The notes: a model not told the origin generated them from the sequence alone. 64,000 nt of DNA from Minisyncoccota bacterium (GCA_028713005.1 JAQTPC010000001.1:33414-97413), one strand, 5' to 3'; numbered from the stretch's first letter, positions 3,092 to 17,002 are shown. Made by a program: numbers and translations.

Positions 3092-3832
3092 TTATTTGGC
3101 CTGATCAGATGTTTTTTCCCACCATCGTTCCCAGTTTTTTGCTTTTGCAGTACCGAAAACCATCAGCCAAAAGCTATTCACCATCCAAATTGATAGTAAC
3201 TTCGGCCAACCAAGGGCATGTGCACGACGTCCGCTATGTATAACAACCAATTCGGAATCGTATAATGTTCGACCAATTTTAGATAAACGATGAAAGAGGT
3301 CAGCATCTTCACGGGTGACGAGATCCTCGCGAAATCCGCGTATTTTTTCAAAAGCTTCTCGAGTAACCATTTGAAATTTGCCTGCTGCTTCGCCAGTACG
3401 AAGAATATTATTCTTAATAAAATGTGTGCTATTAAATATAAAATACATTAGCCGGTCGCCCCACGTGCGTGTTTCAGGGTATACGTTGAGTTTGGCGGTC
3501 AATCCAACAAGATTAGGTATAGACCTAAAATCATCAAGTGCACAGGTGAAGAATGCATCAGGATTCTCGATCAAACAACTACTGTCGATGAATACCAAAA
3601 AATCTCCCTGAGCAATTTTTGCTCCTGCATTTCTATTTGCTGCTATCGTCGTGTGCTTTTCACTTGGCACGAGCACATTTTTTGTATACTTTCGAGCAAT
3701 AGAAACTGTATTATCAATACTTTTATCGTCAGTTACAATTATCTCGTGAGGAATCTTCAACAATGAAAGATTTTCTAAGGTTTTTCCCAGATATTTTTCT
3801 TCATTATATGTAGGTATGATAATTGAAATCAT
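3092..3832 (-). CDS. family-2 glycosyltransferase
   Basis: IIIPTYNEEKYL…VTDDKSIDNT…FIDSS motifs. Tandem with the preceding GT2, separated by a 4-nt gap. Confidence 0.8.
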   Translation of the reverse strand: MISIIIPTYNEEKYLGKTLENLSLLKIPHEIIVTDDKSIDNTVSIARKYTKNVLVPSEKHTTIAANRNAGAKIAQGDFLVFIDSSCLIENPDAFFTCALDDFRSIPNLVGLTAKLNVYPETRTWGDRLMYFIFNSTHFIKNNILRTGEAAGKFQMVTREAFEKIRGFREDLVTREDADLFHRLSKIGRTLYDSELVVIHSGRRAHALGWPKLLSIWMVNSFWLMVFGTAKAKNWERWWEKTSDQAK

Positions 3833-11254: not shown

Positions 11255-11255
11255 T

Positions 11256-11474
11256 ATGAATTTCATTGCGATTCCATTTATTACATTAAGTTTACTTCTG
11301 CCAATTATAATTTTGATTGCGCTTATTTATGCAACAATTGTGCTCAGAAAACAGAAAAGATACTTTCTATTAATATTTTTGTATATTTTAACTATATTCA
11401 TAATTTATTCAGCTGGTGATAAGATATTTTATACTTTTATTGAATTAATTCATGGACAAAATATTTACCCTTAA
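11256..11474 (+). CDS. small hydrophobic protein (72 aa) in an AT-rich insert between the transketolase halves
   Basis: Two predicted TM helices in a very AT-rich stretch. The gene may be spurious. Confidence 0.3.
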   Translation: MNFIAIPFITLSLLLPIIILIALIYATIVLRKQKRYFLLIFLYILTIFIIYSAGDKIFYTFIELIHGQNIYP

Positions 11475-11492
11475 TAAATAATAAAAACTAAC

Positions 11493-11744
11493 ATGAGAAC
11501 AATCGAAACAATCTTAAAACTATCTTTCCTTGGACTTTCTATTTATTTCTTGAGTACACAAGCAGTGTTGTCTCCTTTATTTAACTTACTTCTTCTCGTA
11601 AGTATCGTTCTTGGCATGGTCCTCATGTTCAATCATGAAGCCAGTTACCATTTCAAGCAGACAAAGAAGGATTTGAATATCCGTAAAATAGAGGGTGGGG
11701 TACTCATATTCTTTGCTGCGATCGTAAGTAGTTTGGGATTGTAA
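11493..11744 (+). CDS. small hydrophobic protein (83 aa) in the same AT-rich insert
   Basis: Two or three predicted TM helices in AT-rich sequence. Confidence 0.3.
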   Translation: MRTIETILKLSFLGLSIYFLSTQAVLSPLFNLLLLVSIVLGMVLMFNHEASYHFKQTKKDLNIRKIEGGVLIFFAAIVSSLGL

Positions 11745-11753
11745 TTTATTTTA

Positions 11754-12767
11754 ATGCTTAACCCTCACCAAAAACTTAACCCGCACCTCTTCGACAAGGA
11801 CGTCGAACAAGTTCCTATACGCAAAGGATTTGGTGAGGGACTCCTCCAAGCAGCCGAAGCAGACAAGCGCATCGTCGGCCTCTGTGCAGACCTGACTGAG
11901 TCGACGCACATGCTCGCTTTCAAGCAAAAGTTCCCAGAACGATTCGTAGAGATGGGCATCGCTGAACAAAATCTCGCCGCATTAGCTTCAGGTATGGCCG
12001 CTATGGGCAAAGTTCCATTCATCACCTCATATGCGATGTTTAGTCCTGGTCGTAATTGGGAACAAATACGTACGACCATCGCGTATAATAATAGACCGGT
12101 AAAAATCGCCGGTTCACATGCTGGTATATCAGTCGGCCCAGATGGAGGCACACACCAAGCTATCGAAGATATCGCCATCACTCGTGTCATACCTCGTATG
12201 GTCGTCATCGCACCCTGTGACTCTATCGAAGCGCGCAAGGCAACTATCGCTTCAAGCAAGACAGACTCGCCAACCTATATCCGCCTTGCACGTGAGAAAA
12301 CTCCAGTCATAACTACTGACGAGACGCCGTTTGAGATAGGGAAAGCTCAAGTGGTATTTGACTCACGTGTCTCAAGTGATTCACATAAAAGAGATCTCGA
12401 TGTAGGTATCATCGCTACTGGTGCTCTCCTCTACAAAGCACTCAAAGCTGCTCGTAAACTCAATCAAGAAGGGAAAAATGTGGCAGTGGTTAACCTTTCA
12501 ACGATCAAGCCACTCGATGAAGATACGATCATCAAAGTCGCTCATGACGCTGGTGCTATCGTCACCGTTGAAGAGCATCAGATCGCGGGAGGTATGGGTT
12601 CAGTTGTAGCTGAATGCCTCGCGAAGCATTTCCCAGTACCGATCGAGTTTGTCGGAGTAAAAGATCTGTTCGGCCAATCAGGTACTCCTGATGAGCTCAT
12701 TGCGCACTATGGTATGGATGAAAAAGATATTCATCAAGCCGTATTGAAAGTGCTGTTGAGAAAGTAA
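11754..12767 (+). CDS. transketolase, C-terminal (pyrimidine-binding + C-terminal domain) subunit
   Basis: …FVEMGIAEQNLAALASGMA…SHAGISVGPDGGTHQAIEDIA… motifs. Confidence 0.88.
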   Translation: MLNPHQKLNPHLFDKDVEQVPIRKGFGEGLLQAAEADKRIVGLCADLTESTHMLAFKQKFPERFVEMGIAEQNLAALASGMAAMGKVPFITSYAMFSPGRNWEQIRTTIAYNNRPVKIAGSHAGISVGPDGGTHQAIEDIAITRVIPRMVVIAPCDSIEARKATIASSKTDSPTYIRLAREKTPVITTDETPFEIGKAQVVFDSRVSSDSHKRDLDVGIIATGALLYKALKAARKLNQEGKNVAVVNLSTIKPLDEDTIIKVAHDAGAIVTVEEHQIAGGMGSVVAECLAKHFPVPIEFVGVKDLFGQSGTPDELIAHYGMDEKDIHQAVLKVLLRK

Positions 12768-12789
12768 ATCCCCGAGGGTAGGCCTCGGG

Positions 12790-12818
12790 TTGACACTTAT
12801 ATATAATAAGAGTATAAT
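12790..12818 (+). promoter_or_regulatory. consensus sigma70-type promoter (TTGACA-17-TATAAT)
   Basis: ttgaca at 12790-12795, a 17-nt spacer, then tataat at 12813-12818. A hairpin (ccccgagg/cctcggg) lies just upstream. Confidence 0.6.
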
Positions 12819-12882
12819 ATTACTCAAAGTTCACAAGGCACGTGTTTGTTTTTACAAATACGAGCACAACATAAAGGCACAA

Positions 12883-13350
12883 ATGAAAGATAATCTATCA
12901 CTTGTGTTAACCAAACCAGAAGGAACGGGTTTTTTGGATACTGCTCGGGTGGAATTGCCACACGTAGGCAAAGTGGTCCTGGAAAAATCGGTGACAATTA
13001 CCGAAGAAATGCTTCGTGTCATGTATCCGAACGACACTGACGAGGAACGGAGCGTTAACCACCCACACATGCTCGGTAAAACGTGCGTGGTGTTTGTCCT
13101 TGAAGGACAGAACATTGTCAACGACCTCTTCGTCTTTGTTGGTAAAGATCGAAATCCTGAGATGTGTGATCCGCGTTCACTGCGCTATCGAGTATGGAAT
13201 TCGGGTTTTTTCCCACTTCCAGTCCTCATGCCCAGTAACAAGGAATACTACTTCAATGGTTTTCATCGGGTCAAAACGGCTGAAGAATTCCACCTGCAAG
13301 CACCCATCATCCTCAATGGTAGTTACGACGTTTTGGTTAATACTCAATAA
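12883..13350 (+). CDS. divergent nucleoside-diphosphate-kinase-like protein
   Basis: LSLVLTKPEG…, …HMLGKTCVVFVLEGQNIVND…GKDRNPEMCDPRSLRY… and …NGFHRV… are colinear with NDK motifs but weakly conserved. I chose this start because the upstream ORF extension would overlap the promoter. Confidence 0.4.
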   Translation: MKDNLSLVLTKPEGTGFLDTARVELPHVGKVVLEKSVTITEEMLRVMYPNDTDEERSVNHPHMLGKTCVVFVLEGQNIVNDLFVFVGKDRNPEMCDPRSLRYRVWNSGFFPLPVLMPSNKEYYFNGFHRVKTAEEFHLQAPIILNGSYDVLVNTQ

Positions 13351-13388
13351 GAGCGGCAGGTTCTAAACCAGCCGCTCTTTCTTTTACC
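13351..13388 (+). terminator. intrinsic terminator
   Basis: gagcggc-N13-gccgctc, then tttcttttac. Confidence 0.7.
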
Positions 13389-13399
13389 CAAAACTGCAC

Positions 13400-14209
13400 C
13401 CTTAAGTTATACACAACCCCCTTGCGCGCCAGAATATTAGTGCTAAGATTATATCTATGAACATCGTGATTACAAAGTTTACCTCTCCTTCAAACCTCGC
13501 GTCTAAGACGCAGGTTGTTGGAAGTCGGACTTTGTAACAAATTCTCCTCAATTGGTTACAACATCGGGCTCCCAACGAAAAGGGAGTCCGTTTTGCATAT
13601 CCACCCGCTTGAGCGGACTGGAACGAGTGCAAAAGCAGTTCATTTGAAAGCTCAAAAGACTATGAATACCGAGAATCACGCAACCAATGGTGTGCCTCTT
13701 GCCTTAACATCAACAATTGATTTGTTTGCAACGAGGCGGACACGCAGCAAATATGCTGCCAAAATGCAGGGTCGGATCGGCTGGTGGCACCCTCCCGGCA
13801 AAAAAGCGACAGCCTATTGGTGGTCCGAAAAGCTGGAGCGATGGAACTTGGTTCAAACCAATCCACGCAAAGATAAAGCAACTCGCTTGATGCGAACACC
13901 CCAAGTCAGTCCCGCCTCGTCTCACGTTGGCTGGGAAGCAGGTATCAAATCTCCCATTTTGCCCGGTGAATCTTCCGGCGATCCGGAATTTGAACATGGT
14001 AATGGTGATTAATTCAATTTGTAGACCAGATGTGTATGACGCTGTGTCACATCACTCTGATGTGCTGCCTACAGCATGTCTGGTCTCCACGATTTTGGGC
14101 ACCGATCGGCAAACGCCTAGATAAAGTTATCCTGAGAGAAACCTCTAGTGCGTCGCTCGGTTCAAGCTCATAAGCGCACGGTCTATACTGTGCGCTTTTT
14201 TATTTTTTG
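13400..14209 (+). ncRNA. candidate large structured ncRNA (unidentified); boundaries approximate
   Basis: About 800 bp with no credible ORF in any frame; the longest is a composition-poor 165 aa. GC is visibly higher than the flanks. Many extended hairpins are present, for example gggctccc/gggagtcc, agtccg/cggact, ttccgg/ccggaa, and a long stem around 14014-14088. It ends in a strong terminator. Confidence 0.3.
14175..14209 (+). terminator. intrinsic terminator
   Basis: gcgcac-N10-gtgcgc, then ttttttatttttt. Confidence 0.75.
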
Positions 14210-14282
14210 AGTCATCTACTTCTTCGGTTGACATGCATATATCAACGTAATAGAGTTGGATTAAAGAAAGGAGACTTGCACC

Positions 14283-14747
14283 ATGAAAACAACTGAAAGA
14301 ATACTCGTTCGGGTTATGCCCGAAGCAATGTCGCGTCTCGTGTGGATCATGCGTCAGTTGCTTTCAACTCACGCAAAAATACTTCACAAGCGCGTAGTGA
14401 ACCTCGACACTGACACAGTCAATGCACTTCATCCAACCGCAAACGGTCAGGTGAAGGCAGAGATTCTGCAGCGTCTCAAGGGTCAGCAGATCGGCCTGTT
14501 TCTTCTTGAAGGTGAAAATGTGGTTGAACACATCACACGACTGGTTGGAACAGATAATAAGCAGTATTTGTGGACGATAAACACATTGCAGGGTCAATTA
14601 CTCGTGGAGTTCTACCTCCGTATCAATCGCTCATACGCGGATAGCGTCTACCACTACCACTTCATCGAGTGTGTAACCGACCCTGACGAAATCAAGCGTC
14701 AATACGCTCTTCTGACAGATAAATCACTCTACTCAAAAACGTTTTGA
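14283..14747 (+). CDS. hypothetical protein (154 aa)
   Basis: Strong Shine-Dalgarno (aaaggag) 8 nt upstream; no recognisable domain. Confidence 0.5.
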   Translation: MKTTERILVRVMPEAMSRLVWIMRQLLSTHAKILHKRVVNLDTDTVNALHPTANGQVKAEILQRLKGQQIGLFLLEGENVVEHITRLVGTDNKQYLWTINTLQGQLLVEFYLRINRSYADSVYHYHFIECVTDPDEIKRQYALLTDKSLYSKTF

Positions 14748-14755
14748 TCACATTC

Positions 14756-14788
14756 AGCGCATCCTTCACTGGTATGCGCTGTTTTTTT
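14756..14788 (+). terminator. intrinsic terminator
   Basis: agcgcat-N11-atgcgct, then gtttttttg. Confidence 0.65.
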
Positions 14789-14792
14789 GATT

Positions 14793-14880
14793 CGACAGGT
14801 CCGACCTAGTTCTAGGTCGGACCTGTCGGGAAAACTATCATTTTGTTAAGTAAACTCGTTGCTTACAGGTCGGACCTGGC
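14793..14880. repeat. Family-1 composite element (full palindrome + spacer + single arm), inverted relative to the 5584-5667 copy
   Basis: cgacaggtccgacctagttctaggtcggacctgtcg at 14793-14828, then a spacer similar to the reverse complement of 5600-5640, then acaggtcggacctgg at 14865-14879. Confidence 0.8.
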
Positions 14881-14926
14881 AAAACATCCTTTAAATACCT
14901 CTACTTTTGTGTTATAAAGTAAGCCT

Positions 14927-17002
14927 ATGTCCGCCAAACCCCTCTTTCAACTCGCGACACCATATAAACCAGCAGGTGACCAACCAAAGGCTATTTCAGG
15001 GCTCGTAGAAGGGCTCAAGAAGGGTTTTACCAAGCAAACCTTGCTCGGAGTCACAGGCTCAGGTAAGACCTTTACCGCGGCTAATGTCATCACTCAGTTC
15101 AACAAGCCGACCCTTGTCATTGCTCATAATAAAACCCTTGCCGCACAGCTTGCCCAGGAGTATCGTGAATTTTTCCCGCACAATGCAGTGCACTATTTCG
15201 TCTCATACTATGACTACTATCAGCCAGAGGCATATATTCCATCGAGTGATACATACATCGAAAAAGAAGCCATGATCAATGAAGAGATCGAGCGTCTCCG
15301 TCACGCATCGACGCAAGCACTTCTTACGCGTAAGGATGTAATTATAGTTGCGTCAGTTTCTTGTATATACGGTTTGGGTAGTCCTGAAGAATATGAAAAG
15401 GTGAATCTCAAACTCAAAGTCGGCATGGAACTATCGCGCGCAGAGCTCATCCGCAAATTGATCGACATTCACTTTGAACGCACACTGGCTGATCTGAAGT
15501 CTGGTCAATTCCGCGCAACAGGCAATATGCTCGAAGTCATGCCCGTCAACGAAAAGACTATTTATCGTATCGAGTACGACACCAACGACAAAGGTGAGGC
15601 GGTCATCTCACTCATCACCGAGCTTGATCCCGTCAGTCGTTCCGTGCGTGCCAGTCATGAGGCTATCTTCATTTTCCCAGCAAAGCACTTCATCTCATCT
15701 GATGAGCAGAGTGCCAAAGCGTACAAGACCATCCAAGCTGAGCTCGTCGATAGACTCAAAGTGCTCGAAAAGGGAGGCAAGATGCTCGAAGCAGAACGTC
15801 TCAAGCGTCGCGTCAAGTATGATCTCTCTATGATCAAGGAGATCGGGTATACGAACGGCATTGAGAACTATTCACGTCACTTCAGTGGGCACATGCCCGG
15901 TGAAGCGCCTGATACACTCCTCGCATACTTTCCAAAAGACAAAGATGGCAATCCAGACTTCCTGACCATCATCGATGAGTCGCATGTCACCATCCCACAG
16001 TTGAACGGTATGTATGCCGGCGATGCCTCACGCAAAGAGACGCTGATCGAGCACGGTTTCCGTTTGCCGTCTGCCAAGGACAATAGACCGCTCAAATTCC
16101 CGGAGTTCCTCGAACGTGTGGGCCCCATGATCTATACCTCAGCGACGCCAGGTAAATATGAAGTAGCCGAATCACAAAATGTCGTCGAGCAAGTCATCCG
16201 TCCAACTGGCCTCATTGATCCGGTGGTTGATATCAAGCCAATCAGGGAAAATGCGTCGAGTGGCTACAAGGGTCAAATATTTGATTTCATTGAGGAAGCA
16301 GAGAAGACTATCAAGAGCGGTTTCCGTGTCATCGCCACCACTCTGACCAAAAAGATGGCTGAGGATCTGTCTGAATTCCTCAAGGAAAAGAAGATCAAAG
16401 CGGCATATCTCCACAGCGATATCAAAACCATTGAGCGCATCAATATCCTCACTGACTTCCGCAGAGGGAAGTACGATATCGTCGTGGGCGTCAACCTCCT
16501 CCGTGAAGGACTGGATCTCCCTGAAGTGTCCCTCATCGGCATCCTCGATGCTGACAAAGAAGGCTTCCTCCGCAGTGAGACCTCTCTCATCCAGACTATC
16601 GGCCGTGCGGCGCGCAACTCTGCTGGTCGCGTCATCCTCTATGCCGACACCATGACCGACTCCATGAAGAATGCCATCCGCGAAACTGATCGCCGTCGCG
16701 CCATCCAGGTCGCATACAATACCGAGCATGGCATCACCCCAACCACCATCATCAAGGCTATCCATGACATCACCGACCAGTTGCGCACTGAGCATGATAA
16801 GGCGGTGAATGCACTTGTGAAGATCGATGAGGAATTGGCGCGCACTGACCCCAAGAAGCTCTACCGCATGAAGGAGGAAGCTATGGCCGAGGCTGTGCAA
16901 GCGCTCGACTTTGAGACTGCGGCACTCATACGCGATGAGCTTTTCAAGTTGGAGGAAAAGATGGGTGTGCCGGGGAGGAAGGGTAATAAATTATATGAAT
17001 AA
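14927..17002 (+). CDS. uvrB: excinuclease ABC subunit B
   Basis: Walker A GVTGSGKTFT, the UvrB beta-hairpin region, helicase motifs, and a C-terminal UVR domain (ALDFETAALIRDELFKLEE). Confidence 0.92.
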   Translation: MSAKPLFQLATPYKPAGDQPKAISGLVEGLKKGFTKQTLLGVTGSGKTFTAANVITQFNKPTLVIAHNKTLAAQLAQEYREFFPHNAVHYFVSYYDYYQPEAYIPSSDTYIEKEAMINEEIERLRHASTQALLTRKDVIIVASVSCIYGLGSPEEYEKVNLKLKVGMELSRAELIRKLIDIHFERTLADLKSGQFRATGNMLEVMPVNEKTIYRIEYDTNDKGEAVISLITELDPVSRSVRASHEAIFIFPAKHFISSDEQSAKAYKTIQAELVDRLKVLEKGGKMLEAERLKRRVKYDLSMIKEIGYTNGIENYSRHFSGHMPGEAPDTLLAYFPKDKDGNPDFLTIIDESHVTIPQLNGMYAGDASRKETLIEHGFRLPSAKDNRPLKFPEFLERVGPMIYTSATPGKYEVAESQNVVEQVIRPTGLIDPVVDIKPIRENASSGYKGQIFDFIEEAEKTIKSGFRVIATTLTKKMAEDLSEFLKEKKIKAAYLHSDIKTIERINILTDFRRGKYDIVVGVNLLREGLDLPEVSLIGILDADKEGFLRSETSLIQTIGRAARNSAGRVILYADTMTDSMKNAIRETDRRRAIQVAYNTEHGITPTTIIKAIHDITDQLRTEHDKAVNALVKIDEELARTDPKKLYRMKEEAMAEAVQALDFETAALIRDELFKLEEKMGVPGRKGNKLYE

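Follow-up and report, generated by a model that had tools for sequence, protein, structure and literature searches.

The 64,000-nucleotide (nt) stretch of DNA from a Minisyncoccota bacterium analysed here (GCA_028713005.1 JAQTPC010000001.1:33414-97413, hereafter the window) contains, at about positions 13400-14209, a locus that is best read as a one-gene transcription unit, predicted to run from a promoter at about 13422-49 to an intrinsic terminator at 14172-14209. The unit encodes a 116-amino-acid protein (13662-14012, with the stop codon), and the gene is preceded by a messenger RNA (mRNA) leader of about 205 nt (13457-13661, predicted). We consider it close to certain that this is a protein gene with a structured leader kept by selection, and probable that the leader is regulatory. 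How it would act is put forward tentatively: the leader may serve as an operator for feedback by the basic protein that the gene itself encodes (autoregulation). All coordinates are window positions on the + strand; L001-L024 denote loci of relatives, and P0001 and similar labels denote homologous proteins. The DNA of relatives comprised the contigs encoding homologues and one metagenome scan, which added just one new locus, and the window and 11 loci together amount to 117 kilobases (kb). In a scan of species genomes, a known metagenome-assembled genome (MAG) of Paceibacterota was the sole match.

The initial annotation had held that the region contains no plausible open reading frame (ORF) and had dismissed its only long frame, of 165 amino acids. 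The 116-amino-acid ORF at 13662-14012 lies inside that frame and is conserved. A search with the 165-amino-acid frame returned two proteins, of 116 and 108 amino acids, both of which start at the internal ATG 13662. The homologues P0001 and P0002 match at 94% and 65%, and in a MAG of Candidatus Paceibacterota one of the homologues has already been entered as a hypothetical protein. Between the window and L003, differences at the first, second and third codon positions number 4, 4 and 25, so that third positions hold 25 of the 33, and the ratio of nonsynonymous to synonymous substitution rates (dN/dS) is 0.08. The more divergent comparison of L001 with L003 gives 24, 32 and 56 differences and a dN/dS of 0.13. 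Gaps between the window and L001 in the coding sequence total 24 nt and keep the frame. The interval 13662-14012 is coding and under purifying selection. Two other ways of reading it were rejected. A TTG at 13593, behind GGGAG, was considered as an earlier in-frame start; relatives carry indels of 1 and 2 nt between this TTG and ATG 13662, and leader indels that are not multiples of three rule this start out. Minus-strand ORFs (13710-13997 and others) have no family matches, and the codon-position pattern fits the plus strand.

These results bear directly on the proposal that the whole 800 nt form one large non-coding RNA, of the size class of OLE, GOLLD and ROOL, or a recently pseudogenised foreign gene. 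Structured flanks and a 165-amino-acid frame that has no Pfam match speak for such a reading. However, the coding-type substitutions (dN/dS 0.08-0.13) already refute it, and the centre of the locus is a protein gene with at least 16 homologous clusters. A pseudogene is rejected because the frame is intact in every relative, indels within the coding sequence are frame-keeping and the position of the gene is kept in most lineages. Folding was compared with that of shuffled sequences: the segments 13457-13661 and 14013-14205 reach z-scores of -5.0 and -4.6, and none of 200 shuffles folds as well. By contrast, 150-nt windows within 13600-13975 give z-scores of about -0.3 to -1.0, which is no excess of structure. 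The description of the locus as hairpin-rich thus holds for its flanks and fails for the middle 350 nt. The named hairpins are there: gggctccc/gggagtcc occupies 13565-13590, and the stem of about 70 nt runs from 14019 to 14092. In the same way, the structured RNA is made up of two flanks, about 205 nt 5' of the gene and about 190 nt 3' of it, each with covariation, and is not a gene-sized non-coding transcript.

Searches for known RNAs gave a consistent picture, in agreement with the initial annotation, which had found no transfer-messenger RNA (tmRNA) or RNase P RNA in the region. At gathering scores, no Rfam 15 family was found in the whole 64-kb window, and the models of large non-coding RNAs (OLE, GOLLD, ROOL, HEARO, raiA and others) were likewise without a match at gathering score. 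A permissive scan of 13300-14300 (E ≤ 10) yielded terminator-type chance matches alone, and the same type of scan of six relatives produced nothing recurring. No transfer RNA (tRNA) or tmRNA was detected by ARAGORN anywhere in the window, and RNase P RNA had no Rfam match even at E ≤ 10. The likeness of the locus to OLE, GOLLD, ROOL, tmRNA or RNase P RNA is confined to the size of the gap between genes and to the many hairpins; unlike those RNAs, it has a coding gene at its centre and matches neither Rfam nor ARAGORN models. That it is one large non-coding RNA or a decayed gene is exceedingly improbable.

The leader is where conservation is highest. Between the window and L001, nucleotide identity is 89% across 13457-13661 and 94% across 13514-13661, against 58% in the coding sequence, where synonymous sites are saturated. 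The distal part of the 3' untranslated region (UTR), 14093-14209, is 79% identical, and true intergenic DNA on either side about 50%. Judged by these identities, the leader is under stronger constraint than the coding sequence, and its indels between lineages are not multiples of three. The conserved core (13514-13645) is predicted to consist of a pseudoknot, three hairpins and a tail. Hairpin P2 is formed by 13534-43 with 13550-59, and hairpin H3 by 13565-73 with 13582-90. Hairpin H4 (13591-13634) has an outer helix (13591-98/13627-34) and inner helices (13600-03/13619-22 and 13605-08/13613-16), with an internal loop of 1 x 4 nt. In the pseudoknot, 13516-21 (UGUUGG) pairs with 13572-77 (CCAACG) in the loop of H3 and overlaps the top two H3 base pairs. 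The conserved tail AGUUCAUU follows at 13637-44.

This structure and its pseudoknot are supported by covariation. A covariance model, R1, was built on 13514-13664, and a second, R2, on H4 only. R1 scores 101-169 bits on the seven close long forms of the leader, with 168 bits for that of the window, and 42.7 bits (E = 6e-9) on the distant L024. Across the eight lineages of the alignment fitted to R1, 96.6% of cells are paired. Changes on both sides are seen in 17 of the 34 pairs, with 32 compensatory cells, whereas in slid controls 32-46% of cells are paired and 1-5 pairs change in this way. An earlier alignment of six lineages, made with MAFFT only, gave 93.1% paired cells and 12 covarying pairs. 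The pseudoknot lies outside the fitted model, and its cells are 95.8% paired with covariation in three of six pairs, against 17-58% in slid controls. Its changes run from GC to AU, from GC to CG or UA, and from UA to GC, and its partners in L023 and L024 are UAUUCGG/CCGAAUA and GAUUUG/CAAAUC. About 60 leader positions, unpaired and paired, are near-invariant; the invariant unpaired nucleotides are UGUUGGAAGUCGG, the CCAAC loop and the UAUC and GAAYGA junctions.

Further pairings were identified around the core. An alternative helix, P1 (13467-79 with 13528-39), is 96% paired in five lineages and competes with P2 (94% paired) for UUGUAAC, so that the two are mutually exclusive; both are kept in five lineages, and P1 is without a counterpart in L023 and L024. 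The 5' AUGAAC could pair with GUUCAU of the tail (88% paired). H3, followed by a run of U, was considered as the terminator of an attenuator. It is probably not one, because the U-run pairs as the 5' side of the H4 outer helix, where it covaries; L024 has UGUACUCAU at this place and no such run. Three other candidates were set aside. The UCUCCUC loop of P2 as an anti-Shine-Dalgarno sequence is not kept in L018, L008 and L020, and a pairing of upstream CGGAC with GUCCG is not kept in L003, L018 and L008. A kink-turn reading of the H4 internal loop is not claimed, as the non-bulged strand is without the required GA.

The leader is linked one-to-one with the family gene, and it accompanies the gene in three genomic contexts: between transketolase and uvrB, between RNase III and SMC, and beside DUF6166. 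Long forms, with 197-218 nt from the -10 element to the ATG, are present in the window and in L001, L003, L008, L018 and L023, and the same leader core occurs in L020, where the contig is cut at its 5' end. R1 also recognises the leader of L024, which indicates that the start codon called there is too early: in L024 577-720 the alignment to the leader model extends as far as an ATG at 718, and the called start at 682 is probably premature. The match in L024 begins 28 nt inside the called end of the upstream gene. In four further lineages (L009, L013, L017 and L022) the leader takes a short form of 63-79 nt from the -10 element to the ATG, with a single hairpin followed by the tail AAUUGAACCUUC and with no pseudoknot, P2 or H3. 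When folded independently, the H4 segment took on the same architecture in 10 of the 12 lineages. Its outer helix spans 6-8 base pairs (bp) and is unrelated in sequence between lineages; U-A and C-G pairs close the inner helix, and the 5' strand carries a bulge of 1 nt and the 3' strand a 4-nt AYGA loop. On short-form hairpins, R2 reaches 9.9-16.7 bits, which is at noise level, and R1 matches two short-form loci weakly (22 bits), in the expected place. Across the 117 kb, R1 found, besides the leaders of family genes, just the same hairpins on the opposite strand, and neither R1 nor R2 found a second leader or H4 copy in the 64-kb window.

The protein downstream of this leader belongs to an orphan family. 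An exhaustive profile search of 1.84 billion representatives gave 16 clusters at E ≤ 1e-3, and the family is found in Paceibacterota-like bacteria of the candidate phyla radiation. It has no Pfam, NCBIfam, PHROG or PDB match, and the window contains a single member. The family core (alignment A4) reads TLPA..LF..KR.R, G.IGW.R, YYWS....W.LVKPNP and RL.RG...PAS, with a C-terminal GN-GD in many members. The core is basic, with an isoelectric point of 10.7-11.5 (about 11), and is predicted by AlphaFold as a three-stranded beta-meander with predicted local distance difference test (pLDDT) values of 90-95 for residues 10-65. It is followed by an acidic tail, predicted to be disordered, that ends in GNGD. 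The basic core, the small beta-sheet modelled with confidence and the acidic, disordered tail give it the appearance of a protein that binds nucleic acids. Residues 100-116 (13959-14009) carry a motif, (S/E)G..(K/E)(W/F)..GN-GD, that is common to the distant P0006, P0009, P0010 and P0014; the tail preceding it is disordered and variable, and the motif itself looks like a docking peptide.

Transcription of the unit is predicted from a promoter at 13422-13449, with a -35 element TTGCGC (13422-27), a 16-nt spacer and an extended -10 element TGCTAAGAT (13441-49). The extended -10 (TGnTAnnAT) and a TTG -35 at the right spacing are kept in 10 lineages, and from this conserved placement we infer a transcription start at about 13456-13457. 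A possible leaderless upstream ORF of 26 codons (13457-13537) begins with an ATG at this predicted start and ends with a TAA inside the P2 stem; the same interval also contains a variable hairpin and the 5' strand of P1. In all six long-form lineages an ATG lies 6-7 nt past the -10 element, and the frame stays open for 23-27 codons, with the stop in or just before P2. One indel between lineages in this stretch is of 3 nt. As other frames contain only 0-3 stops, the openness of this one carries no significance, and conservation of the peptide is poor. At the other end of the leader, the start codon of the main gene is preceded by an A-rich stretch (13646-13661) that is predicted to be weakly structured and that reads without a Shine-Dalgarno sequence; the small hairpin predicted there is just 57% paired across lineages. 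In most relatives the corresponding stretch is A/C-rich and likewise has no Shine-Dalgarno sequence, L023 with AAGGAG being the exception; the neighbouring NDK-like gene does have one (AAAGGAG).

The 3' UTR (14013-14209) consists of two structured modules and the terminator. The stop codon is immediately followed by the conserved TTCAATTT and then by module 1, a long imperfect hairpin at 14019-14092. This hairpin is kept in the window, L001, L003 and L018 (z-scores of -3.1, -4.6, -4.5 and -6.0), and its sequence is just 45% identical between the window and L001. Module 2, at 14096-14170, is an irregular hairpin whose sequence is conserved (GGGCACCGAUCGGCAAACGC...CGUCGCUCGGUUCAAGCUC); its apex carries the motif UAUCCUGAGAGAA, and the window contains a single copy of the module. 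It is 79-84% identical across the three closest lineages, compared with 58% for the coding sequence, and its middle stem covaries (CUAGA/UCUAG, CUCGA/UCGAG and GUAGA/UCUAC). Both modules are confined to the closest relatives; distant ones have the terminator alone after the stop codon, and L018 has a single long 3' hairpin with a CCUGAGAG apex. The terminator of the unit (14172-14209) was identified by a terminator scan, with its hairpin at 14172-14197 and a T-run, and has an 11-bp stem and a 4-nt loop; all of its pairs except the one closing the loop are kept in three close lineages. A motif resembling UAUCC/YGAGAG appears to recur at the H4 junction (13600-13626, UAUCC...GGAACGAG), at the apex of module 2 (14129-14141, UAUCCUGAGAGAA) and at the apex in L018 (about 3374-3390, GACCUGAGAGUUGGC). 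It could be a repeated binding site.

We infer that the leader exerts regulation and, more tentatively, that the protein is its effector. The element would be a structured leader that regulates its mRNA in cis and goes with an orphan protein family, and its distribution is narrow. Under autoregulation, the leader would be a cis-acting operator on its own mRNA: as the basic protein accumulates, it would bind the H4/pseudoknot core and possibly also the related UAUCC...GAGAG apex in the 3' UTR. The bound protein would then block ribosome loading at the unstructured A-rich stretch before the AUG, resulting in negative feedback. H4 ends about 27 nt before this start codon, which has no Shine-Dalgarno sequence. 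Autoregulation is favoured because the leader is linked exclusively to one gene family, the product is basic, a Shine-Dalgarno sequence is mostly absent and an H4-type hairpin occurs in 10 of the 12 lineages. Leaders of ribosomal protein mRNAs (the pseudoknots of L20 and S15) and the pseudoknot operator of phage T4 gene 32 are bound by their own product. The leader described here resembles them as a partly pseudoknotted 5' UTR tied to one gene and placed before an unstructured initiation region, and the gene product is small and basic. Unlike them, it has no match in sequence or structure to Rfam leaders; the best of these, the L20 leader, reaches 16.7 bits where its gathering score is 58.7, and that match covers the upstream terminator on the opposite strand. 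The protein is moreover no known ribosomal or single-strand-binding protein.

Several points weigh against this interpretation. Invariant unpaired nucleotides and a pseudoknot are equally typical of metabolite-binding aptamers. The homology of the short-form hairpins to H4 is plausible and not statistically secure; it is unproven because R2 scores them at noise level. There are eight long-form lineages only, and their pair count was made on a model-fitted alignment, which favours structure. The transcript of the unit is predicted from sequence, and the likeness of the 5' junction to the 3' apex is our own reading.

The main alternative mechanism is a riboswitch for a metabolite or ion, in which the core (13514-13640) would be an aptamer and ligand binding would remodel P1/P2 or H4, changing translation or transcription. 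Like pseudoknotted riboswitch aptamers, the leader has a compact covarying core in a 5' UTR, a pseudoknot between a loop and a 5' segment, and invariant junction nucleotides amid many other unpaired ones. The mutually exclusive P1 and P2 pairings, both kept in five lineages, and the resemblance of H3 and its U-run to a terminator could also be accounted for in this way. However, that U-run forms part of the covarying H4 helix, and L024 lacks it. We see no clear expression platform, L023 and L024 have no P1, and four lineages are devoid of P2 and H3 as well as of the pseudoknot. The motif occurs with a single gene family: the window has one copy, and apart from the leaders of that family the 117 kb, a small search space, contain none. 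The regulated gene encodes a small basic protein that does not look metabolic, being neither a transporter nor an enzyme, and Rfam holds no match. We regard a riboswitch as unlikely. A broader form of the idea, namely that the core represents a new class of riboswitch or RNA sensor of Paceibacterota-like candidate-phyla-radiation bacteria, controlling new small basic nucleic-acid-binding proteins, with the 5' and 3' motifs taking part in an undescribed protein-RNA feedback circuit, is similarly doubtful.

The leader may instead respond to translation, as in attenuation by a leader peptide. Ribosomes translating the leaderless ORF of 23-27 codons would unwind the pseudoknot, P1 and P2 and so couple expression of the main gene to translation status. 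The placement of an ATG 6-7 nt past the extended -10 in all six long forms, the frame that is open to P2 and an indel of 3 nt agree with this, and the overlap of a short 5' ORF with the alternative pairings P1 and P2 recalls attenuators of the trp and erm type. Unlike those, the ORF here is leaderless, contains no runs of regulatory codons, is followed by no secure terminator and shows no significant conservation. Other frames are nearly as open, peptide conservation is low, with the conservation of the C-terminal residues explained by the overlapping RNA motif, and no such ORF occurs in L024 or the short forms. The conserved 5' AUGAAC may serve in pairing with GUUCAU of the tail instead. Attenuation of this kind is considered quite improbable. 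Finally, the RNA elements may affect only stability or processing: the 5' element would be a stabiliser, the 3' hairpins would be protective, a small RNA might arise from the 3' UTR, and together they would set a constitutive level of expression. Module 1 keeps its shape and not its sequence, as expected of a protective or RNase III-type hairpin, and the 3' modules are limited to one clade and dispensable elsewhere. Nevertheless, about 60 near-invariant leader positions and a covarying pseudoknot are far more constraint than a stabilising hairpin needs, and module 2 is conserved in sequence (79-84%). We give this explanation a low probability.

Neither the leader nor the 3' modules match anything in Rfam 15, and no description of them was found in the literature. 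Bacteria of the candidate phyla radiation have tiny genomes and are largely uncultured, and little is known of their gene regulation; we know of few riboswitch classes from this lineage. The locus is a compact case of an unannotated covarying RNA motif with a pseudoknot and a conserved promoter, locked to an orphan family of small proteins. Should the protein bind its own leader, the orphan family would gain a first function (RNA binding) and a new autoregulatory pair of RNA and protein would be added to those known; should the leader bind a metabolite, it would represent a new riboswitch class in this lineage. The locus also suggests that a region described as ORF-free and hairpin-rich may be a short, compositionally odd gene with long structured UTRs.

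In the window, the unit is placed between two weak NDK-like genes (12883-13350 and 14283-14747), with the C-terminal half of a split transketolase upstream and uvrB downstream. The intrinsic terminator of the upstream NDK-like gene (13351-13388; GAGCGGCaGG...CCaGCCGCTC followed by TTTCTTTT), read from the sequence and also found in L003, marks the 5' boundary of the unit; both terminators proposed in the initial annotation are thus present. The GC content of the region, 0.475, is elevated in comparison with the window mean of 0.426 (93rd percentile), as had been stated, and only marginally so in comparison with the neighbouring genes (0.453 and 0.462). The C-terminal half of transketolase and uvrB reach 0.48-0.50, and the coding part of the region (0.504) explains most of the excess. 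Most of the lineages examined, distant ones among them, have the family gene between the C-terminal half of transketolase and uvrB; its NDK-like and other neighbours vary. RNase III and SMC flank it in L018, a divergent DUF6166 gene is its neighbour in L023, and a full leader is present in both.

The flanking NDK-like paralogues are divergent, with Pfam NDK E-values of 0.0065 and 0.0015, below the gathering score. The first of them is absent from L001, and L022 has a weak NDK-like gene immediately 5' of the family gene. Between the split transketolase halves, 500 bp at 11255-11753 have a GC content of 0.26-0.27 and no ORF of at least 90 amino acids; the transketolase gap of relatives carries one to three small genes of 83-144 amino acids. 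Just 3' of the second NDK-like gene lies a near-perfect 34-nt palindrome (14797-14830, GACAGGTCCGACCTAGTTCTAGGTCGGACCTGTC), and a further copy of CAGGTCGGACCTG occurs about 40 nt beyond it, at about 14866-14880. The 150-nt segment 14725-14874 folds with a z-score of -8.2, the strongest of the windows scanned across 12400-15474.
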